Below, in pieces: positions 10,667 to 28,212 of a DNA stretch of 64,000 nt. The notes beneath the pieces were generated by a model. That model did no database searches, had not been told where the DNA came from, and saw nothing but the letters and a program-made list of their open reading frames with translations. How positions within the stretch are numbered: position 1 is the stretch's first letter; each line of letters begins with the position of its first letter. The DNA is from a virus, in IMG/VR virus record IMGVR_UViG_2816332652_000003, positions 2,167-66,166 of that record; one strand, written 5' to 3'. The position numbers were made by a program, and so were the translations under genes.

Positions 10667-12063
10667 ATATACAGAAGGCAGGCATACCGATCAAAACGCT
10701 TCTGGCTCATTTTTGCAGGCATCGCGCTGCAAGCTGACTGTTAGTAAGATAATATAAATGAATATAGTACACTTTAACTAAAGGTGGTGATTAAATGATT
10801 CTAGCTAAAAAAGTTAGAATTCGACCAACTCCTGAGCAGGAGAAGCAGTTGTGGCGTTCGGCAGGGACGGCTCGCTGGGTCTACAACTTGACGCTTGCCC
10901 GGCAAATAGAGAATTACCAGAATGGCGGGAAGTTCTTGCACGATGGAGTACTGAGAAAAGAGTTGACGCAACTTAAGAAGCGAGAAGAATATGCTTGGCT
11001 GTACGATGTTTCCAACAATGTAGCAAAACAAGCCGTAAAAGATGCCTGCGATGCCTACAAGAAGATGTTCAAAGGACAATCCAAGAAACCGAAGTTCAAG
11101 ATCAAGAAGCGCTCCAAACCAGCGTTCTACAACGATACAGTCAAGTTCAAGGTCAAAGACAGTAAGGTCTTACTCGAAAAAATAGGCTGGGTGGCAACTT
11201 CTGAACAACTTCCAGAATCGGACAAGTACAGCAATCCGCGAGTATCATTTGACGGTAAGTATTGGTACGTATCCGTAGGTATTGAGCAGAAGCAAGAAAG
11301 CTCTGAACTGTCGGACGAGGCGATTGGTATTGATGTAGGTATTAAAGAACTGGCGGTCTGTAGTAACGGAATGGTCTTTAAGAACATCAACAAGACAGCC
11401 GCCGTAAGAAAGACGGAGAAACGATTGCGGAGGTTGCAACGCAAAGTGTCCCGCAAATATGAAATGAATAAGGAAGGAAGCCGTTTCGTCAAGACATGTA
11501 ACATTGTAAAAGTCGAAAATTCCATTCGTTTGCTTCATCGGAGAATAACTAATATTCGCGGCAATCACATCCATCAAGCAACAAACGCAATAGCGAAAAC
11601 CAAGCCTAGCGCTGTTGTGATGGAAGACTTGAATGTTAAAGGGATCATGAAGAACCGATACTTAAGTAAAGCAATTGCAGGGCAAAAACTGCATGAGTTT
11701 ACCCGACAAATGAAATACAAGTGTGAGAAGATAGGCGCAAGGTTTATCCAAGCCGACAGGTGGTTCTCTTCATCGAAATTGTGTTCGTGTTGTGGGCGGA
11801 TCAAGAAAGACTTGAAATTATCTGATCGTACCTATGAATGCGATTGCGGATTCATTATTGACCGAGATATGAACGCGGCAATCAATTTATCTAAATTGGC
11901 GAATTAACACTTACACGTTATCGCTGATATGTAGGATTCGTTGTATCCGAATTTACGCCCTTGGAGTGTTATATCAAACAAAAGTAGTCTCTGGACAAAA
12001 TTGGGCACGAGGAAAAGGGAAGCAAACAAGGATTGTGTAGATTTATACAACTCTTGGCAACGG
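10667..12063 (+). mobile_element. Non-autonomous IS607-type element (tnpB only, no tnpA); left end inferred
   Basis: The right end terminates in ...CTTGGCAACGG (12063), as IS607-family ends typically do. The left end is placed after AAGGAGGG (10659-10666). No transposase ORF is present. Confidence 0.6.
10795..11907 (+). CDS. tnpB: TnpB RNA-guided endonuclease, catalytic residues intact
   Basis: N-terminal HTH; RuvC-I IGIDVG, RuvC-II VMEDL, Zn finger CSCC..CDC, RuvC-III DRDMNAAIN. Confidence 0.95.
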   Translation: MILAKKVRIRPTPEQEKQLWRSAGTARWVYNLTLARQIENYQNGGKFLHDGVLRKELTQLKKREEYAWLYDVSNNVAKQAVKDACDAYKKMFKGQSKKPKFKIKKRSKPAFYNDTVKFKVKDSKVLLEKIGWVATSEQLPESDKYSNPRVSFDGKYWYVSVGIEQKQESSELSDEAIGIDVGIKELAVCSNGMVFKNINKTAAVRKTEKRLRRLQRKVSRKYEMNKEGSRFVKTCNIVKVENSIRLLHRRITNIRGNHIHQATNAIAKTKPSAVVMEDLNVKGIMKNRYLSKAIAGQKLHEFTRQMKYKCEKIGARFIQADRWFSSSKLCSCCGRIKKDLKLSDRTYECDCGFIIDRDMNAAINLSKLAN

Positions 12064-12904: not shown

Positions 12905-13732
12905 TTGAATCTTGACGATGATTCTAAAATAAGTCTATTAAGAATTACATTAGGTTATTTAGAAAAAGAATTAAATCGAAAGAAAAATGAAGTGGAGATG
13001 CTAAAGCAGATGCATCAAAACATTAATAAGCTCGGGGCTAAGTTGGAAAGTGTCTTAGTTTTAAATAAATTAGCCACCAAATTAACCATGAATTCTTACT
13101 TTATCCACGCTACTCCGAAAGTCACATATGATGGAATATCGAAGAAAAGACCGGGTGGTATAGAATTTGGAGATGTTCTGTACATTTATACTGAAGGTGA
13201 TAAGCAAAATAAGATTAGAGAGAATGCGATGCTGTATCAGGCAAAATTGTTTAGTTCCAGTAAAGTAGATGAACATCAATTGAAGTTGTATACTAAATGG
13301 TCGCCTTTTAGTCTCCTTAAAGAAAAAAATCGAAAATATGTGTTGAATACTAATTCAAATCCTCATCCAGGAGCGAGATATCTACTCCTAGATACTAGTA
13401 CACTGAACAAAAAATTCGCTTCAACTATGACACCAGAAGATAATCTTAGAGCAAATCGAAATGATAGCTATTTAGAGAATGATTTAGTTGGGTTGTTAGA
13501 TTTTAGTAGAGGGAAAGAGCTGACAGGAGAGTGGGGGGATGCAATAAACAAAGTTAGGGACGAGATAATAACTAATAATCTTTCTAAAAGTGGGTTCGTA
13601 AAAAATCAAGCTCTGTCTTTATTATCAGAAGGACAAGATAATAATTTGAATGAAGAGATTATGAAAAATGTTGATGTAAAAGGTTTTTGGTTAATACATA
13701 TAGTATCTGAAGTGAGTAACACTGTAGATTAA
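12905..13732 (+). CDS. Accessory AT-rich protein with a PD-(D/E)XK-like motif
   Basis: EFGDVLYIY...AMLYQAK; noticeably AT-richer than its neighbours. Confidence 0.55.
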   Translation: MNLDDDSKISLLRITLGYLEKELNRKKNEVEMLKQMHQNINKLGAKLESVLVLNKLATKLTMNSYFIHATPKVTYDGISKKRPGGIEFGDVLYIYTEGDKQNKIRENAMLYQAKLFSSSKVDEHQLKLYTKWSPFSLLKEKNRKYVLNTNSNPHPGARYLLLDTSTLNKKFASTMTPEDNLRANRNDSYLENDLVGLLDFSRGKELTGEWGDAINKVRDEIITNNLSKSGFVKNQALSLLSEGQDNNLNEEIMKNVDVKGFWLIHIVSEVSNTVD

Positions 13733-13774
13733 GTATAGACTAATGAAAAAGTGTAGTTTGTTTGTAGTAAATCC

Positions 13775-13793
13775 ATGTTATCTTAAATCCATA
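13775..13793 (+). promoter_or_regulatory. Late-promoter-like motif, copy 1
   Basis: ATGTTATCTTAAATCCATA (TGn + -10-like hexamer + CATA); similar motifs at 19306 and 22428. Confidence 0.45.
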
Positions 13794-13807
13794 TAATAAC
13801 GTATTCG

Positions 13808-13836
13808 AAAAGGTCGCTCATTCGAGCGGCCTTTTT
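13808..13836 (+). terminator. Intrinsic terminator-like hairpin
   Basis: AAAAGGTCGCTC-ATTC-GAGCGGCCTTTTT. Confidence 0.75.
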
Positions 13837-13853
13837 GCATTGGAGGAAAGAGT

Positions 13854-14843: not shown

Positions 14844-15572
14844 GTGAGCAGGAAGCAGAATCCGAATCGTAAGAAGGCGTTCAAAATTTGGAAAGATAGT
14901 GGCGCTGTGATGAAGCCGAAAGAGATTGCGGAAAAGTTGGGCATCACATCTGAGTCAGTCCGGAAGTGGAAGTCACTTGATCAATGGGAAGGAAAGATGG
15001 CGAATGCTAAACCCGGTGCTCCTCGTGGCAATCAGAATGCTAAAGGTAATCGAGGTGGTAAAGGCGGTCCGCTCGGGAATCAGAAAGCTGTAACACATGG
15101 ATTGTTCCGTAAGTTCGAGCCGCAAGATCCTGAGTATTTAGAACTCATAGATATTGTTCAGCAAATGGAACCTATAGACATGATCTGGCATAACATCACT
15201 CAGGGATTCCGTAAAATCATTTGGGCGCAGCGTATCTTCTTCATCAAAGACAAAGAGGATATGACGAAAGAGTTGAAAAGGGAGAAACCAGGTGAGTATG
15301 GAGACGAATACGAATGGGAAATTCAATTCGCTTGGGATAAATATGCGAGTTTCATCAAGGCAGAGGCTACAGTCATGCGTGAGATCAGGGGAGCTATCAA
15401 ACAATTCCTTGATATCGCGCCGCAGGAAGATGAGCGCCGATTGAAACTGGATCAGATGCAGGCCAAAGTCGAGAAAACCCGCCTTGAGATTGAAAAACTG
15501 AAGAATGGTGATGGAGATACCGAGGATGATCTGATCGAAGATTGGGTGAAGGCGGTGGAAACTGGTGAGTAA
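14844..15572 (+). CDS. terS: Terminase small subunit
   Basis: N-terminal HTH (KEIAEKLGITSESVRKWK), GAPRGNQNA motif; overlaps terL. Confidence 0.88.
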   Translation: MSRKQNPNRKKAFKIWKDSGAVMKPKEIAEKLGITSESVRKWKSLDQWEGKMANAKPGAPRGNQNAKGNRGGKGGPLGNQKAVTHGLFRKFEPQDPEYLELIDIVQQMEPIDMIWHNITQGFRKIIWAQRIFFIKDKEDMTKELKREKPGEYGDEYEWEIQFAWDKYASFIKAEATVMREIRGAIKQFLDIAPQEDERRLKLDQMQAKVEKTRLEIEKLKNGDGDTEDDLIEDWVKAVETGE

Positions 15573-17019
15573 AGAGTCTCCACAAACTAAACGCAGATTC
15601 GCTGCATTCAAAAAACGTATTCCCGAGTACCGGAAGAATCCGGTTCTTTTTTGCGTGGAATTACTGAAATTTACTCCTGATGAGTGGCAAGCAGAAGTAA
15701 TGATGGACATAGCTGGAGGTCCGCGAGTGTCGGTGCGATCTGGACAGGGTGTTGGAAAGACCGGCCTTGAGGCTGCGGTGGCATTATGGTTCCTATCGTG
15801 CTTCCCGTTTCCGAAGGTTATCTGTACTGCACCGACTCGTCAGCAGTTGCATGATGTCTTATGGGCTGAGATTAGCAAATGGCAAGAGAAAAGTCCGTTG
15901 CTTAAACGGATACTCAAATGGACAAAGACTAAGATTTACATGCGAAATTATGAGGAACGCTGGTTTGCTACAGCCCGGACAGCTACCAAGCCCGAGAACA
16001 TGCAGGGTTTCCATGAGGACTACATGCTCTTTATTGTGGACGAAGCTTCCGGGGTTGAAGATCGTATCATGGAGGCTATCCTGGGGACGCTCTCGGGTGA
16101 ATTTAATAAGCTGCTAATGTGCGGGAACCCAACTCGGACCAGTGGTGTATTCTATGACTCTCACAACAGGGACCGGGCAGATTACAACACGCACAAAGTT
16201 TCCTGTCTGAACAGTCCTCGGACAAGTAAAGAGAACATAGCCATGCTTGAACGAAAATATGGTAAAGGATCTGATGTATGGCGTGTCCGAGTTGAAGGGG
16301 AGTTTCCGCGGGGCGAGTCAGAAACCTTTATCGCTCTGGAAGTGGCTGAGTTTGCTACCAAAGATGTAACCTTGGAACCGTCTGGAGATACCTTAACCAT
16401 CGGCTGTGACGTTGCCCGTTTTGGTGATGATGAAACATCTATGTACGCGGGGATAGGCCCAGTAACAGTTGGGCAGCATCATCATTTCAAGAAAGACACA
16501 ATGGTTACTGCTGGCTGGGTGTTGAACTTAATAAGAGAATTGCTTCCGCAGTTTCCAGAAGTCGTTCATACGAGAATCAGGATAGATGATACAGGTGTCG
16601 GTGGTGGTGTGACTGATCGGTTGAATGAAGTAATAGCAGAAGAAGGACTTCCGTATGAATTAGTTCCAATAAATAATGGATCGTCATCTTTGGATGAACA
16701 TTATGGAAACCTGGGCGCAGAAATGTGGGCGCATATAAAGGGACAACTGGAACAAAACATGAGCAATTATATAAACAATGAGTCCGCGGTCTTACAACTT
16801 CCTGATGATGATGTATTGACCTCCCAATTGACTACGAGAAAATGGTCAATGACCAGCAAAGGTAAGATACTTCTTGAAAGCAAGAAGGATATGAAAAAAC
16901 GTGGTCTCAAGTCACCGGATAGGGCTGACGCATACGTTCTCACCTTTGGTGAATATTTGCTGGGGGCACCTCAGTCAATAATGCTTCCAACAATAGGAGG
17001 TGTATCAATAAAAAGATAA
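15565..17019 (+). CDS. terL: Terminase large subunit (resembles the P1 PacB type)
   Basis: VRSGQGVGKT, LFIVDEASGV, GNPTRTSGVFYDSH, nuclease IGCDVARFGDD, SPDRADA. Confidence 0.95.
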   Translation: MSKESPQTKRRFAAFKKRIPEYRKNPVLFCVELLKFTPDEWQAEVMMDIAGGPRVSVRSGQGVGKTGLEAAVALWFLSCFPFPKVICTAPTRQQLHDVLWAEISKWQEKSPLLKRILKWTKTKIYMRNYEERWFATARTATKPENMQGFHEDYMLFIVDEASGVEDRIMEAILGTLSGEFNKLLMCGNPTRTSGVFYDSHNRDRADYNTHKVSCLNSPRTSKENIAMLERKYGKGSDVWRVRVEGEFPRGESETFIALEVAEFATKDVTLEPSGDTLTIGCDVARFGDDETSMYAGIGPVTVGQHHHFKKDTMVTAGWVLNLIRELLPQFPEVVHTRIRIDDTGVGGGVTDRLNEVIAEEGLPYELVPINNGSSSLDEHYGNLGAEMWAHIKGQLEQNMSNYINNESAVLQLPDDDVLTSQLTTRKWSMTSKGKILLESKKDMKKRGLKSPDRADAYVLTFGEYLLGAPQSIMLPTIGGVSIKR

Positions 17020-17089
17020 CAAGAAACTTTGAAATCATATTAAGAGGGAGGGTGATTATAAAGTAACTTGAATCTTCAATAAAACTGAT

Positions 17090-17391
17090 CTGCTGCGGGC
17101 AAGACGGCAAACGCTACGATTCTTATAGAGAAACAGCGCTGGGTGTACAAAAGATAGGACTTCTATACACACCAGTTGGAAAGGGCGCAGCGGCTAATCA
17201 AAGACGAAGAAGCCCGTAAAGCCGTTGATTACAGATACATTCAAGGTTATTCACGCAAAGAAACGATACTCTTCTTCCGGCGCGCTCTCAATGATAGTAC
17301 AATCAAGCGCAAGATCGATGAGGGGCTGGAGAGTGTCGCAAATACCTTGAAGCTAATCGGCTTTTTTGAGCAAGATGATGCAGAATACTAA
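17090..17391 (+). pseudogene. Relic of a second ArpU-like regulator (5' truncated, internal TAG)
   Basis: KTANATILIEKQRWVYKR*DFY...EGLESVANTLKL aligns by eye with VTANAVIMKDKRHANY...IANIANSLKF of 12179-12802. Confidence 0.65.
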
Positions 17392-17427
17392 AAGAGAAGC
17401 TGACGATTAATCGTCAGCTTCTCTTTT
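17390..17427. terminator. Perfect 38-bp palindrome, bidirectional terminator
   Basis: AAAAGAGAAGCTGACGATT/AATCGTCAGCTTCTCTTTT between convergent genes. Confidence 0.85.
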
Positions 17428-19305: not shown

Positions 19306-19325
19306 GTGATACATTAGGAACATAG
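19306..19325 (+). promoter_or_regulatory. Late-promoter-like motif, copy 2, preceded by TTGACCC/TTGAACCC repeats
   Basis: GTGATACATTAGGAACATAG; repeats at about 19238 and 19281. Confidence 0.5.
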
Positions 19326-19460
19326 AAAAAGGTGCGAATGAAATGCACAGCCGCACATACGGCATATGACTGGGACGTTCCTATTCTCGCCTTTTCTATT
19401 TTCAGGATTATCATTCCGTGAGCTTCAACGATATGATCATGTCGAGGTAATGCTCGGTAT
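19322..19460 (+). ncRNA. Putative structured RNA leader
   Basis: Closing stem ATAGAAAAAGG(19322) with CCTTTTCTAT(to 19399) encloses hairpins GCCG-CACATA-CGGC and GTGC..GCAC; a second GAGC..GCTC domain follows. Confidence 0.4.
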
Positions 19461-20339: not shown

Positions 20340-20495
20340 GTGATCAGCAGCAGAAGACGGAAGAAGCAACGCATCCGTCTCAACAAGCAGCCAGAGAAAT
20401 GCAAAGGATGTGTATGGGGTAGATGGGATGGAGTGAAGCAGTTCTGTAGTAGACCTGTCTGCCCAAAAGAGGTAAAATATCCCTATCATATTTGA
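20340..20495 (+). CDS. Cys-rich micro-protein, copy 2 (51 aa, GTG start)
   Basis: Preceded by a terminator and GGAGG; KQPEKCKGCVWGRWDGVKQFCSRPVC. Confidence 0.65.
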   Translation: MISSRRRKKQRIRLNKQPEKCKGCVWGRWDGVKQFCSRPVCPKEVKYPYHI

Positions 20496-20512
20496 CATGG
20501 AAGGGAATTTAG

Positions 20513-21151
20513 ATGAGCGAAATTGATTATACTGGCTTGCTATTAATACCAGTAGCTACTGCACTCCTTACTACAGGAGCATTGTTAATTAAAGAATGGT
20601 TTCAAAGTAGCAATGCTACCAAAAGGGCTCTAACCGAGAAAAAGTTGGTTGAACTTTACAACCATTTGTACAGCACGGTTATTCGATACGAAGGAAGGTT
20701 GAGCATAAAATATAATAAAGAAGTCTATGATGTTGATCCGAACGGAAAAGAGATGTATAGGGAGATACCTGAGGCCGAAGATCCTGAAGTATGGGAAGAA
20801 GCTATCCAAAACGTCTCAAATGAAATTTATAATAAGATACATCTTTTAGAATATGATGATCTTGTTCTATGGCTTAAAGTTGAAAATGGTGCTCAAGAAG
20901 AATATGCACTGGAAGAACACTCTGTTAATAAAGCCCTGTCATATCGGAATTTTAGCAAAAATGTTAAGAAAAGCTATGGCCGATTATATAACGAATTCCA
21001 TTTAAGCACCCGAAAAAGGAAGAAAGCGAGAATCAAAGATATAAAAATCAGTATAAAGAATTTAAAACGAAATCCGTTTCTTGAGAAAGACGAGCGTAAG
21101 AAACAGAAAAAGAAGTTAAAAAAAGAAATTAAAACTATCAAGAGAACGTAG
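20513..21151 (+). CDS. Accessory protein with N-terminal TM helix and basic C-terminus
   Basis: GLLLIPVATALLTTGALLI; Lys/Arg-rich tail. Confidence 0.7.
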   Translation: MSEIDYTGLLLIPVATALLTTGALLIKEWFQSSNATKRALTEKKLVELYNHLYSTVIRYEGRLSIKYNKEVYDVDPNGKEMYREIPEAEDPEVWEEAIQNVSNEIYNKIHLLEYDDLVLWLKVENGAQEEYALEEHSVNKALSYRNFSKNVKKSYGRLYNEFHLSTRKRKKARIKDIKISIKNLKRNPFLEKDERKKQKKKLKKEIKTIKRT

Positions 21152-21325
21152 CACCCACAGTGGTGCTTTTTCTTTTGCTCTCATATGACAGAATGTGAGT
21201 CGGTTTAAGCTTCTCAGCATGAGAACGTCCGTTTGTAAGGATCAAACCATTGAAGAGCGGAGAACACCGTCTGATTGAGCGTACGCACGAATATGAAGCT
21301 CACCCAAACGTCGAAACCAACTCAA
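21150..21325 (+). repeat. ~175-nt conserved non-coding element, copy 1 (terminator + structured tract)
   Basis: Clearly homologous to 25427-25600. Confidence 0.8.
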
Positions 21326-21392
21326 CACAAATATTTATGTTCCTTCGCTCACATTTTGGAGGAAAAGGCTTGTTTTTGTTGAATTATTGTAG

Positions 21393-21941: not shown

Positions 21942-22029
21942 GAGCTACAACTGTAATATACAAAGATGAAGGACTGACCAAAAGGTTAGTTCTTTTTTTG
22001 TTGCCACATTACTATAGGAGGTAGAGGAT

Positions 22030-22209
22030 ATGAACATCAGAATCGTGCCAATTGATCAGATTAATGCAGCAGCCTACAACCCCCGTGTTGACCTTCAACC
22101 TGGTGATGTTGAATATGAGAAGCTTCGCCGCAGTATAGAGGAATTCGGTTATGTGGAGCCGATTGTCTGGAATGAACTCACAGGGCATATGGTCGTCGGT
22201 CATCAGTGA
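22030..22209 (+). pseudogene. Truncated ParB-like phage gene
   Basis: YNPRVDLQPGDVEYEKLRRSIEEFGYVEPIVWN...VVGHQ then TGA where Arg is expected. Confidence 0.8.
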
Positions 22210-22213
22210 TACA

Positions 22214-22396
22214 AGAAAATACTCAATGAACAGCAAGGGTAAGATATTACTTGAAAGTAAAAAGAACATGAAGAAGCGCGGATTAAAATCACCGGACAGA
22301 GCTGACGCATATGTTCTCACCTTCGGTGAATATTTGATGGGAACACCACAGTCTATAATGCTTCCGTCAATAAGTAGTATGTCAATAAAAAGGTAA
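22214..22396 (+). pseudogene. Second, diverged copy of the terL 3' end (60 codons)
   Basis: 51 of 60 residues identical to the TerL C-terminus; many additional synonymous differences. Confidence 0.92.
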
Positions 22397-22427
22397 ACTG
22401 AAGATTCGATATCTCAGTCTTATAGTA

Positions 22428-22448
22428 GTGATAATATAAAGAGCATAG
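22428..22448 (+). promoter_or_regulatory. Late-promoter-like motif, copy 3
   Basis: GTGATAATATAAAGAGCATAG. Confidence 0.45.
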
Positions 22449-22800
22449 CAAACACACTAAAGGATTGAAGAATGCTTTGGCCCTCCCAAAGGGAAGGTAT
22501 GTTGGCAATCGAATGACCGTGAAACAGCAATACATCTAGGCAGAGAGGTTATGCCCTCTCCGGTGTGCCTAGTGCCCGTTATCGTACTATGACTCAAGCA
22601 TGCTGAGTGACCCAACAAGATTTTTAGTGACATCTTGCAGATGTGGCGGTGTTGGCGTGGGGGAAAGCGGATAGGATAATCGCTATTCTATTGTATCCTA
22701 TCAAGTGTAGCTGGAGGCATGTCCCTCCAAGGACTACTAGAAGGTTTGAATATGCTTTGCTCCTTCTTAGTGAGACATCCAAACGGGTGGTTCTTTTTTG
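22445..22800 (+). ncRNA. Putative large structured non-coding RNA (~350 nt)
   Basis: No credible ORF; at least 7 hairpins in series, ending in a U-tract terminator. Confidence 0.5.
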
Positions 22801-22877: not shown

Positions 22878-24209
22878 ATGAAATTTTTATTTCCTGGTTA
22901 TTATAAACTTACTAACGTTGAATTAAGAGAATTGTGGGAAAGATGTAATTTTGTACTTGACACTAATACTCTGCTTAATCTTTTTAGATACCCAAAAGAA
23001 ACGAGTAACGTTATGTTGAAATTGCTCGAAAGTATTAAAGATAGGATTTGGATTCCGCATCAAGTAGCGCTAGAGTATCATAGAAATCTGGAAACGGTAT
23101 TATATGAACAAAAGAATGAGTACGAAACTCTTGAGAAAGAATGTATGTCTGAACTTTCTAAACTTATTTCAAAATTTAAAAAATTAAGACATTCTCATAT
23201 AAGTACTAATACTATGGTGCAGACATTAGAACAAAGTAGTGAAATCATAAGAAAAGAATTATCAAATCAACGTGAACAGCAACCTGATTTACAGGAAATA
23301 AAAAAAAGAATCAACAACTTGGTAGGAGAAAATATAGGATCACAATTTGAACAAGCTGAGTTGGTTAAAATATTCGCAGAGGGGGCTCAAAGGTACGGAA
23401 ATAAAGTCCCTCCTGGATATATGGATTCTAAGAAAAACTTCTCTTACCTTCATAATGGTATTGAATATCAGGCAGCATATGGAGATTTGATTTTTTGGAA
23501 ACAGACTCTAAAATACGCTCAAAATAAAGAGGTTAGTTCTATCATTTTAGTAAGCGATGATAGAAAAGAAGATTGGATTCTAGAAGTATCTGGTGAGAAA
23601 AAAGGAATACATCCGTACTTAACAAATGAATTTCATGATCAAAGCAAAGGTAAGTTATTTAACTCGTATAACTCTGTTCAATTTATTAGTGAAGCTGAGC
23701 ATTTTTTAGGATTTAAGAGTAGTGCAATTGTAAGTGATGTCATAAAGGAAATTGAAACTGTTTATAGTAAGGCGGATTCTTTCAAGGATAGTGAGAATCT
23801 AACTTATAATAATACTTTTAAGGAAAAATATAATTATAGAGAAAGACTCTATGATCATTATCTTGAAGATAAAAAGCGCAGAATAGGTGAAACAGAGTTT
23901 TACTTTTATAAATTTTTCTTTGACGTGAGTAAATCTTTTGTTGAAACAGAGGAAAGGAACAGCAATTCAGTTTATAATTCTAATAATCATAACGCTTTCC
24001 CAGTTATACTTAAAAAAATTGTAAAAGATTATATTATTAATGCCGAAATAGTTGAGATCAAATATGAAGGCGAATTTCTTACTGTAATAGTTGCAACTCC
24101 TTTTGAATTTGAATATTCTTCAATAGATAATCTAGCGGAAGCTATTAGTAAAGAAATGAATCAATACTATACTGAAGAAACTATTAGATTATTAAGAATA
24201 TTTGTCTAG
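22878..24209 (+). CDS. PIN-like domain protein (DUF4935 type), candidate defence RNase
   Basis: FVLDTNTLL, IWIPHQVALEY, YGDLIFW, VSDDRKEDW. Confidence 0.85.
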   Translation: MKFLFPGYYKLTNVELRELWERCNFVLDTNTLLNLFRYPKETSNVMLKLLESIKDRIWIPHQVALEYHRNLETVLYEQKNEYETLEKECMSELSKLISKFKKLRHSHISTNTMVQTLEQSSEIIRKELSNQREQQPDLQEIKKRINNLVGENIGSQFEQAELVKIFAEGAQRYGNKVPPGYMDSKKNFSYLHNGIEYQAAYGDLIFWKQTLKYAQNKEVSSIILVSDDRKEDWILEVSGEKKGIHPYLTNEFHDQSKGKLFNSYNSVQFISEAEHFLGFKSSAIVSDVIKEIETVYSKADSFKDSENLTYNNTFKEKYNYRERLYDHYLEDKKRRIGETEFYFYKFFFDVSKSFVETEERNSNSVYNSNNHNAFPVILKKIVKDYIINAEIVEIKYEGEFLTVIVATPFEFEYSSIDNLAEAISKEMNQYYTEETIRLLRIFV

Positions 24210-24590: not shown

Positions 24591-24680
24591 ATGCAACCAG
24601 ACAAATGCAAAGGTCTCGTATGGGGCAGATGGGATGGAGTAAAGCAGTTTTGTAGTAATCCCTTTTTTTGAAAAATTTAA
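24591..24680 (+). pseudogene. Cys-rich micro-gene, copy 3 (degenerate)
   Basis: MQPDKCKGLVWGRWDGVKQFCSNP; the second Cys is replaced by Leu and the last Cys is missing. Confidence 0.7.
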
Positions 24681-24710
24681 AATAAACAAAATGAAGGGGG
24701 TGAGAGTGAC

Positions 24711-25427
24711 ATGGATAAACGGAAAGATTTATCAGCGCTGACTAACTTACTTGAAATTGATCCTGAATCGACTTTTAGCACAGCAATTGAATATACTATA
24801 AACCAGATGCCTTTTATAGGAAAGGTGTACAACACTTTGAAAATGAGGGCATTTGAGAAGAAAATAAATCGCTTAGAATCAAGATTGCATGTCTTATCTA
24901 ATCATTTATTGGAAAGGCCTGACGACCTCGTTAGTCAGTTCATTAAAAACAGAGCATTTCCCTTTATGTTAGATCAATTGTTAGAAGAACAACAAGAAGA
25001 AAAAACAGATTTGATAATGAATGGAATAGAATACATTTATGAACAAAGAATAACTGAAGAAAATAAGATGTTAATGCATTTTGATATTCTAAAAGAACTA
25101 AGAGTCAATGAGCTTAAATTCCTCTTAAGATTTACAGAGGAAGCTAAAGAAGTTGCTAGTAAAGAAGATCAACATGAGGAACCATCAGAAGATGAATGGA
25201 TTTACTATGAGTACATTATGACTCATCTCGAAGCACTAGGACTTATTGATACAGACGAAAGTTCTATTAATGTAACCAAGTTTAATATTGTAACTATTTT
25301 AAATGATATAGCTGCTAGTAAAGGGAAATATACCATACGTGCAACTCGACCGAGGCTAACAAAATTCGGGCATGAGTTTGTGAAATTTTTCGATTTAAAG
25401 TCATTAATAAGATTACCTGCACAGTAA
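24711..25427 (+). CDS. DUF4393/Abi-alpha-like accessory protein
   Basis: MPFIGKV...DILKELRVNELKFL...HLEALGLI...RLTKFGHEFVKF winged-helix-like ending. Confidence 0.55.
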   Translation: MDKRKDLSALTNLLEIDPESTFSTAIEYTINQMPFIGKVYNTLKMRAFEKKINRLESRLHVLSNHLLERPDDLVSQFIKNRAFPFMLDQLLEEQQEEKTDLIMNGIEYIYEQRITEENKMLMHFDILKELRVNELKFLLRFTEEAKEVASKEDQHEEPSEDEWIYYEYIMTHLEALGLIDTDESSINVTKFNIVTILNDIAASKGKYTIRATRPRLTKFGHEFVKFFDLKSLIRLPAQ

Positions 25428-25600
25428 GCACCCAACCGTGGTGCTTTTTCTTTTGCTCTCATATGATTAATATGAGCCGTTTTAAGCTTTATTCAGCAAG
25501 AATGTATTTGCAGGGATCAACCCGTTCAAGAGCGGAGAAGAGGCGCTGAGTGAGCGTATCCACGAATATGAAGCTAGTTCAGAAGTTGAAACCAACTCAA
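25427..25600 (+). repeat. ~175-nt conserved non-coding element, copy 2
   Basis: Homologous to 21150-21325. Confidence 0.8.
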
Positions 25601-25664
25601 TTTAAATAAGGATATTTTTGTTTATTTATAGTAAAATAATTACAAAAAATTAGGAGTTGGTATA

Positions 25665-26483: not shown

Positions 26484-26763
26484 GATAAAAAGTTGCGATA
26501 CTATAAATAGTTGTTGACTTATCAGCAAAGAAAAGTCATTCCAACATTAGCGGTAAGATGCTTAATATAAACATAATCAAATCATGCTGTGATGGGAGAC
26601 TGTTGCAACTTTTTTTAGTGGGGGGGAGGTATGAGGATTGATGATTAAATCCGTAGTAACACTATAGTAACTCGATGATATTATTAATCCATAGAAGTAT
26701 GAAGAACTTTAGAAGGTAAGGAAACTTTTCCTGCCTTCTATTTTTATGTCTGGAGGTGAAACA

Positions 26764-28212
26764 TTGAAATGGTATCATAAAGCCATTTATTCATTTGCAA
26801 ATTCTGTTCTCCCAGCTGCGGTGAAGCGTCAGATGATGGGTTTTGGCAGGATGACCTCTCCAAGATCATCAAACGGATGGGATATATTCAATTGGCTCCC
26901 GAAAAAGTATCAGAGTGCTCATAATATTGATCTGACCAAACTCCAAAACCATACAGCTGAGGAATTGCTTGAGATTCTTGTGTCTGTTCATCCCGATATT
27001 TCGCATGCGCTCTACAATTTTTTGCGTATGGGTGACACTCCACTTACATTTACAGCAAAGAAGCAGAGTGGTAGTGACGATAAGAATGGGCAGAGGAATT
27101 TGGATTCAATCAAGAACTTATTGGATTCTCCACTTCCTTCACCTGGTTATCAACATGGAAGGTCTCTGGACAAGCTTGATACGATTCAGCGGATGATGAT
27201 CATGGTGCGTGGAGCTTGTGCTGGTGAAGTAGTTCTGAATGAGCGATGTAACGATGTGATTGATATCGTACCTGTTGACCCAGCGACGATTTGGTTCAGA
27301 AGAGAAGAGGGAACGGATCGACTTGTGCCTTGGCAATTCATCAAGAATCCACGTCCTCGTTCTGGTGAAGAATGGTTTGGGCAATACAAAAAGATTGATA
27401 CGCCGACATTTATATATGAAGAGTTCGATCCGATGATCGATGATCCATATGGGCGAACACCGATACTACCAGTTCTTCAAGCGGTTTTTTTTCATCTACA
27501 GGTTTTGCAGGACTTGAAGGCTGTTGTTCACAATCAGGGATATCCAAGACTGGATATTTCTGTAGTTGAGGAAGTTTTGCTCAAAAACATTCCTAATCAA
27601 TATAAGAATAATCCTGCGGGGCAGCAAACGTGGTTGACTGAACGTATGAGTGAAATTATGGGACATTTTAATTCACTTAATCCAGACGATGCTATGATTC
27701 ATTGGGATAGTGTGAAAGTTGAATATCTCAAGGGCGGCAATGCGGGCCCAATGATTGATATCAAGAAATTGATAGATATTATTGATACGCAGATGGCAAC
27801 CGGATTGAAAACGTTGCTCACATTACTATCCAGGCATCAAGGTTCTACTGAGACATACAGCTCCGTGGATACTCAAATATATATCAAGTCCGTAGAGTCC
27901 GCTCGAAACGTAACCAAGCGTTTCTGGAAGCGGGCTTTTTCTATGGCTACAAGAGTGCGTGGTGTTCAAACGCAGGTTGAAGCAGATTATGCTCCTATTG
28001 ATCTACGTTCTGAAATGGAGAGAGAGCGTGATCTGAGAGCGAAGCTTAACAACTATGTTCTGGCGGAGAAAGAACGCTACATCACTGCCAAAGAAGCGGC
28101 GACAGAAGCGCGGTGGATTATGGGGATTGATCCTAATATACCGTCTGAGTTGCTTGCTGGTCTTGAGAAGAAGTATGGGTCTGATGATGACGATCATGAT
28201 TCAGCAAGTTGA
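26764..28212 (+). CDS. Portal protein
   Basis: Size, position before the head genes, and PYGRTPILP motif; TTG start after GGAGGTG. Confidence 0.8.
   Translation: MKWYHKAIYSFANSVLPAAVKRQMMGFGRMTSPRSSNGWDIFNWLPKKYQSAHNIDLTKLQNHTAEELLEILVSVHPDISHALYNFLRMGDTPLTFTAKKQSGSDDKNGQRNLDSIKNLLDSPLPSPGYQHGRSLDKLDTIQRMMIMVRGACAGEVVLNERCNDVIDIVPVDPATIWFRREEGTDRLVPWQFIKNPRPRSGEEWFGQYKKIDTPTFIYEEFDPMIDDPYGRTPILPVLQAVFFHLQVLQDLKAVVHNQGYPRLDISVVEEVLLKNIPNQYKNNPAGQQTWLTERMSEIMGHFNSLNPDDAMIHWDSVKVEYLKGGNAGPMIDIKKLIDIIDTQMATGLKTLLTLLSRHQGSTETYSSVDTQIYIKSVESARNVTKRFWKRAFSMATRVRGVQTQVEADYAPIDLRSEMERERDLRAKLNNYVLAEKERYITAKEAATEARWIMGIDPNIPSELLAGLEKKYGSDDDDHDSAS

Follow-up and report, generated by a model that had tools for sequence, protein, structure and literature searches.

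The non-coding tract at 22445-22800 of the window (the whole 64,000-nucleotide stretch of DNA analysed) is, by homology, structure and context, a genuine member of a family of structured RNAs carried by Paenibacillus prophages. It is probably a displaced, promoterless and partly eroded copy of the anti-termination late leader of these prophages, a relative of the EAR RNA. In the family, the RNA most likely works in cis as a processive antiterminator of the late operon of the phage, a reading that we infer from homology and from the position of the RNA between a promoter and a terminator. The late promoter of many Paenibacillus prophages would transcribe the leader RNA first, and the RNA would act in cis on its own polymerase, which could then read through the leader terminator and later ones, in parallel with HK022 put and lambda Q/tR'. 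The window copy would have arrived in a hotspot between terL and the portal gene together with the PIN_8 gene behind it. Its activator gene, apart from 18 codons, has been lost, as have its repeats, its -10-like hexamer and 3 nt where transcription is presumed to start; the RNA core is nearly intact.

The window comes from an IMG/VR provirus of 67.5 kb and, judging from its relatives and their protein names, probably belongs to a Paenibacillus phage. Cargo of 9.7 kb lies between terL and the portal gene (Table 1). Going from terL to the portal gene, the first element is an OLD/GajA-like nuclease gene on the minus strand, followed by a cassette of two genes and then by a ParB-N stump joined to a duplicate of the terL 3' end. 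The tract and the PIN_8 gene come next, and a second cassette, encoding a 272-aa protein with a match to PADLOC PDC-M14B, is last. Among the relatives, terL abuts the portal gene in some and is separated from it by 3-7 kb of differing cargo in others; the terL-portal interval is thus a cargo hotspot. The ParB-N stump is part of a recombination scar upstream of the tract, and the fused stump and terL end are also found in three relatives (L004, L005 and L030). The two cassettes (20387-21333 and 24593-25608) have conserved flanks, comprising a 65-nt block upstream and a block of about 175 nt between the genes, and differ in their ORFs.

Table 1. Positions of the tract, its parts and the neighbouring genes in the window
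Feature	Position	Strand	Basis or detail
terS	14844-15572		
terL (real copy)	15565-17019		
ParB-N/DNA-methylase gene stump	22030-22209	+	59 codons, then stop; Pfam ParB_N, phrog_620/498; blastn to phage methylase genes
terL 3' end, second copy	22210-22396	+	last ~60 codons; tblastn to ends of phage terL genes
Activator-gene remnant	22433-22486	+	last 18 codons, stop-interrupted; tblastn with P0002 residues 114-131, 78% identity; alignment with L034, L038, L039
Eroded activator-repeat array and promoter-proximal block	22487-22542	+	comparison with L039, L046 and others
5' hairpin	22543-22560	+	GAGAGG-TTATGC-CCTCTC
EAR-like core	22561-22683	+	R1 match and covariation; includes GGUGU and GUGGGGG
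Core, P1	22568-22574/22585-22591	+	loop CCCGUUAUCG
Core, P2a	22593-22596/22658-22661	+	
Core, P2b	about 22598-22605/22647-22655	+	
Core, variable hairpin	22616-22637	+	CAAGAT/ATCTTG
Core, P5	22667-22683	+	GCGG-ATAGGATAA-TCGC
Degenerate tRNA-like minihelix	22696-22733	+	TCCT..TGGAGG-CATGTC-CCTCCA..AGGA; by-eye alignment with L038, L041, L046
Intrinsic terminator	22776-22799	+	CATCC-AAAC-GGGTG and T run; terminator scan
PIN_8 (PF18476) cargo gene, downstream of leader	22878-24209	+	Pfam, 3e-55
Portal gene	26746-28212		

Other parts of the window also bear on late control. The resident late-control region upstream of terS (13715-13840) has TGTAG-type repeats about 11 nt apart, a TATAAT-like hexamer and a strong terminator hairpin; an EAR-like RNA is absent from it. 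Directly behind the real terL (17067-17427) there is a decayed sigma-/ArpU-like gene, of which 17158-17391 matches phrog_21810 (1e-29) and the N-terminal part is frame-broken; a perfect 19-bp palindromic terminator follows (17390-17427), without a leader RNA. At 19306-19335 there is a second relic of the leader start, TACATTAGGAACATAG, which consists of a TAnnnT hexamer and TAGGnACATAG, diverges thereafter and suggests that another late-control unit was once stacked here. A RAGATH-18 RNA (66.7 bits) is located at 11958-12021, just after a 370-aa ORF.

Searching the phage and plasmid collections with blastn gave no match to the tract, and 31 prophages related via the portal gene gave none either, except for a short collinear similarity behind terL in L003. 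A pattern taken from this similarity led to a clear homologue, L034, in which the element starts immediately behind the stop codon of a 131-aa ORF; this ORF is the activator gene whose last 18 codons can still be recognised at 22433-22486 of the window. Anchoring in IMG/VR on the PIN_8 protein or the activator protein alone yielded one locus each; with short or degenerate DNA patterns, a protein alignment scan and genus-wide BLAST, the total came to about 60 distinct copies. The best blastn relative of the window, L046, is up to 79% identical over 277 nt (E 1.6e-62). L036 was discarded as a chance match of an 18-base pattern, in which the covariance model R1 described below has no hit, and pattern matches in metagenomes were mostly due to chance too. 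Two other identities for the tract were also rejected. One was decayed coding sequence: tblastn with the 161-aa ORF that fills the corresponding slot of L003 finds nothing in the tract, and the indels of the family leave no ORF conserved. The other was a tRNA or tmRNA: ARAGORN calls neither, whether in the window or in the six relatives scanned, and the tRNA-like part is a minihelix only.

In the canonical late-control unit of Paenibacillus prophages, a small sigma-region-4/ArpU-like activator gene is followed by direct repeats, a TAnnnT hexamer, the structured RNA, an intrinsic terminator, and then terS and the late genes. Of the 67 loci examined, 44 have an activator homologue, with identity down to 29%, whose gene ends within about 120 nt on the upstream side of the element, and 15 have terS 0.7-2.6 kb downstream. 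Homologues of the activator protein match phrog_21810, sigma region 4 more weakly and ArpU below the cut-off only; in Paenibacillus they are named as a specialised sigma subunit. The direct repeats, three to six in number and spaced by about 11 nt, directly follow the activator stop codon. Their words differ by locus (TGACGG, GTCTGT, TGAGAC or TGGGGG, including the upstream regions of L066-L110), which suggests that they may represent specificity classes of the activator proteins. The TAnnnT hexamer is present in 55 of 57 copies and its final T opens an invariant TAGGSACATAG; transcription would start near the A of ATAG. A terminator closes most units, with a T run in 43 of the 57. The layout of the unit matches the one established by experiment for Ltr-dependent late promoters, where the Ltr activators have been shown to bind direct repeats located just beyond the end of the ltr gene (PMC3753634).

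The RNA cores can be sorted into classes 1-3. Class-1 relatives match the Rfam model RF01735 (epsC, that is, EAR) at 35-68 bits, and a subset passes the curated cut-off of 42 bits; a B. subtilis positive served as the control. Class 2, to which the window belongs, and the longer class 3 are undetected by Rfam. RF01735 has no match at E <= 10 in the window and none in its closest relative, L046, which counts against the leader reading. Common to all three classes and the EAR of the host are GGUGU, P1 with its CCGUUAUC loop, ACUC opening P2, GUGRGG closing P2, and P5. In class 2, GUGACCC and one variable hairpin replace the P3 and P4 hairpins (GGGxx..xxCC UUA GACG..CGUC), which are absent from the window, and it is this replacement that puts the window class below the Rfam cut-off. 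The window has CAAGAU/AUCUUG as its variable hairpin; L034 has GAGAG/CUCUC and L051 has CCAGU/ACUGG. By eye, no equivalent of P3/P4 was found in the window's class, nor were partners for a pseudoknot of the kind reported for the EAR motif (PMC2864571) identified. We use 'EAR-like' for class 2 in a qualified sense, from the shared flanking helices and a chain of homology rather than from the curated model.

The link between the classes was made with R1, a covariance model built from 11 class-2 and class-3 relatives, the window left out. R1 hits the window at 22545-22699 on the plus strand over its full length (model positions 1-158) with 80.5 bits (E about 1e-24), the only significant match in the 64 kb, and 17 of the 20 model pairs are standard there. 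Relatives outside the training set score 60-97 bits, a range that includes the window. Every class-1 member is also found full length, at 24-68 bits, which ties the classes together; the best-preserved members of this RNA family are EAR.

Each of the EAR helices can be compared with its counterpart in the window. P1 (22568-22591) encloses CCCGUUAUCG, the conserved EAR loop being ACCGUUAUC; it covaries in the family (GC/AU 29:25, CG/GC 45:10) and has one non-standard pair in the window. For P2 (CUCG.../...GUGAGG in EAR), the window has CUCA/UGGG and GCAUGCUG/CGGUGUUGG, with two non-standard pairs in P2b, and a compensatory swap from G-C to A-U is seen at the fourth pair. As in EAR, the P5 hairpin, GCGG-AUAGGAUAA-UCGC, comes directly after GUGRGG. 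In the family as a whole, RNAalifold on the relatives recovers P1, P2 and P5. When 60 distinct sequences are aligned by fitting to R1, a procedure that favours the structure, 95.7% of cells pair, compared with 87.6% in shuffles and 32-54% with slid partners; double changes occur in 13 of the 20 pairs, and the observed values were reached by 0 of 500 shuffles. In an alignment-free check, stems are much more stable with their own partner arms than with the arms of other copies: -6.3 versus -2.2 kcal/mol in the 5' hairpin (19 distinct stems) and -6.7 versus -2.9 kcal/mol in P5 (48 distinct stems). Conserved U-G/G-U pairs, present in 55, 43 and 51 of the 60 sequences, identify the plus strand as the RNA strand. 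The host genus has an EAR of its own, a chromosomal copy (92-110 bits) in 70 of 93 genomes. In one genome it is located in an eps-like operon, between tyrosine-kinase-like and galU-like genes (identified by eye), and its ACTC..CATGCTG..GTGAGG-hairpin layout is common to the phage elements.

In these prophages the family promoter block consists of phased repeats and TAnnnT directly before TAGG. The window copy has neither an intact activator gene nor phased repeats nor TAnnnT: the repeat array is gone, with one degenerate TGACCG left; the hexamer is destroyed by an inserted T and reads ACATCT; and TAGGCA shows where the CAT of the invariant ACATAG has been deleted, a 3-nt loss seen in no other copy. 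An earlier note, made from the DNA letters of the window, had seen a late-promoter-like motif ahead of the tract. That motif, at about 22428, is not the family promoter, the real block being the eroded one at 22470-22537, and the first ~35 nt of the tract belong to the dead remnant of a gene's 3' end (22433-22486) rather than to RNA structure. Within the RNA, the variable hairpin has lost its inner part and has a T-rich stretch instead, and the minihelix has kept its T-stem and lost the canonical T-loop of the relatives, GGTTCGAATCC. The core blocks common to the host EAR (GGUGU, CCGUUAUC, ACUC and GUGGGG) are kept. So is closure by a terminator, which is homologous to the leader-closing terminators and has the same motif in L034, L038, L045, L048 and L049.

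With its promoter block lost, the window copy can work only if it is transcribed from upstream. The terminator scan finds a terminator upstream of the tract at 21968-21995, and no good promoter is found between the leader terminator and PIN_8; sites in a sigma-70-type promoter scan are no more numerous than in shuffles. The copy may thus go untranscribed, and that it still helps polymerase past its own terminator into PIN_8 seems to us possible though somewhat doubtful. Also to be weighed is a fully functional copy, an internal re-arming site at which polymerase from upstream would be made terminator-resistant, with PIN_8, the next cassette and the portal and head genes expressed as a result in spite of the terminators in the stacked cargo. 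The R1 score and pairing, within the range of the non-training relatives, the conserved single-stranded blocks and the lack of a good promoter in front of PIN_8 all point this way. So does the presence of the element directly behind terL in three phages of the window's lineage (L050, L052 and L058), two of them with cores that pass the Rfam cut-off. We nevertheless regard full function as rather unlikely, given the destroyed promoter block, the terminator upstream, and the losses in the variable hairpin and the T-loop. In the L050 hotspot copy the 5' strand of P2 is scrambled, so hotspot copies do decay. PIN_8 also follows the element in L039, L047 and L052 (by tblastn, 223-372 nt past it), and leader and PIN_8 have thus probably moved together. 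Viewed together, the hotspot copies appear to be transplanted late-control units in various states of decay, and the window copy is best read as one of these, a displaced and partly eroded leader.

Many relatives (L041, L044, L046, L048, L049, L051, L076, L097 and others) have a tRNA-like minihelix 150-300 nt after the start of the element. Its acceptor-like stem covaries (GGCCTT/AAGGCC, GGTCTT/AAGACC, GACCTT/AAGGTC), and it has a short GG-containing connector and a T-arm with the canonical GGTTCGAATCC loop, with no tRNA call from ARAGORN. The T-loop motif is found in 31 of 57 relatives, and the minihelix may serve as a signal for processing or mimicry. P5 doubles as the leader terminator in some of the short class-1 copies (L039, L040), where a T run follows it. 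The order of promoter, RNA and terminator fits a stand-alone late small RNA equally well: an RNA of about 300 nt with tRNA-like parts that is trans-acting or processed. Closure of most members by a terminator, the canonical T-loop and the covarying acceptor-like stems, with their suggestion of processing or mimicry, agree with such an RNA. Against it, class-1 members pass the curated EAR model, and in every case the unit is oriented towards terS and the late genes, with no sign of another promoter block. We consider a stand-alone RNA quite improbable and retain the anti-termination leader for the family.

The earlier note had drawn attention to the tract as dense in hairpins, a property that does not distinguish it: the minimum free energy (MFE) of the plus strand is -107.1 kcal/mol, compared with -102.6 +/- 6.2 kcal/mol for shuffles (z = -0.74), so hairpin density alone is no evidence. 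The minus strand has z = -2.19; the z-scores thus favoured the wrong strand and are uninformative as evidence. Only about half of the stems listed in the note are conserved ones. GAGAGG/CCTCTC is the 5' hairpin of the family, with its 19 distinct covarying stems, and TGGAGG/CCTCCA is supported by relatives in the T-stem position of the minihelix. CTAGGCA/TGCCTAG overlaps the promoter-proximal block and P1 of the family and has partial support only. Three others compete with structures supported by covariation: ACTCA/TGAGT with P2, ACATCT/AGATGT with CAAGAT/ATCTTG, and GATAGGATA/TATCCTATC with P5. CCCT/AGGG and AGAAGG/CCTTCT are specific to the window and absent from relatives. The GATAGGATA/TATCCTATC pairing is a perfect 9-bp helix (22670-22702), also found in the window only and created by changes in the P5 loop and a minihelix strand; chance may account for it, with roughly 0.1 such helices expected per tract, or it may represent a new fold. 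That the tract as a whole is a DNA-level site (cos/pac, recombination or integration) or a set of chance hairpins in decaying DNA is highly improbable: packaging genes are nearby, phased repeats resemble terminase or iteron sites and the MFE is not below shuffles, but the stems differ in sequence and still pair, the G-U pairs are specific to one strand, loops vary, as do the lengths of the helices, chance is excluded by the E-values of the homology, and the window lacks the phased repeats.

Other points made at that stage have held. There is no credible ORF in 22445-22800; G+C is 0.47 in 22500-22799, compared with 0.30-0.37 in the flanks (beyond 22800 and 22200-22499); and the terminal hairpin with a U-tract is a terminator-like hairpin and T run, also backed by relatives. 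Nor could the note match the tract to the large RNAs GOLLD or ROOL, and the Rfam models of both are without a hit; Rfam finds nothing in the tract even at E <= 10. Covarying homologues, which it proposed to look for, exist in the form of about 60 distinct relatives with double changes in 13 of 20 pairs. It had suggested either a new non-coding RNA or an antitermination leader. The second is best supported at the family level, from context and the Rfam EAR matches, and what had seemed new is a divergent class of a known RNA. Since the window copy is a displaced relic, a discrete induced transcript from it is not assured.

EAR makes RNA polymerase resistant to terminators and serves the eps operon of B. 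subtilis as its processive antiterminator (PMC2864571, PMC7858274). A 2021 paper gives put and EAR as the only RNA-based processive antiterminators besides its own conAn2, with EAR described only in polysaccharide operons of Bacilli (PMC8191782), and we found no paper on EAR in phages in the literature searched. Features common to the phage RNAs and EAR are P1 with its CCGUUAUC loop, a long P2 that begins with ACUC and ends with GUGRGG, and a P5 hairpin whose loop resembles a T-loop; in addition, class-1 relatives score above the cut-off of the curated model, and the host genus has a chromosomal EAR in an eps-like operon. They differ in that the window class has one variable hairpin for P3/P4 and is not scored by RF01735, and in the extra parts of the phage elements, namely the 5' hairpin, a CCGGGCG hairpin, the tRNA-like minihelix and a terminator of their own. 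Whereas EAR is located in or before an eps/cps operon, the phage elements follow an activator-dependent promoter and head the transcript, and the window copy is in a prophage cargo hotspot.

Other known systems share single features with the family. Like HK022 put, the phage element would be a cis-acting RNA right after a promoter and would make polymerase terminator-resistant without a phage protein (PMC9378689; PMC8191782); however, the two have no sequence or structural similarity, put consisting of two stem-loops in early operons of a lambdoid coliphage. The Ltr-dependent late promoters of Gram-positive temperate phages (RinA, ArpU, LtrA-C) also have an activator gene just upstream of terS and, immediately after its stop codon, direct repeats that are binding sites (PMC3753634), but a structured antiterminator RNA is undescribed there. 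The conAn system of pLS20-type plasmids likewise has a large RNA heading a long operon of a Firmicutes mobile element (PMC8191782), although conAn2 is much larger and needs the ConAn1 protein.

The presence of EAR relatives at the start of late operons in prophages would offer a testable answer to how polymerase passes the terminator after an activator-dependent late promoter. A broader claim is that EAR-type RNAs are the usual late-operon antiterminators in a large group of Gram-positive temperate phages, with at least three core designs, two of them undetected by Rfam, and that hotspot copies still re-arm transcription across the terminators of stacked defence cargo; at present we think this unlikely. 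The natural variants in which P3/P4 are replaced may help to show which parts of EAR are required for its action on polymerase. Because the same genus carries both the phage RNA and the EAR of the eps operon, exchange between phage and host eps operon becomes a question. For annotation, two of the three phage classes escape RF01735. The window copy itself matters less: it would be a molecular fossil, indicating that whole late-control units move into the terL-portal hotspot with defence-like genes.
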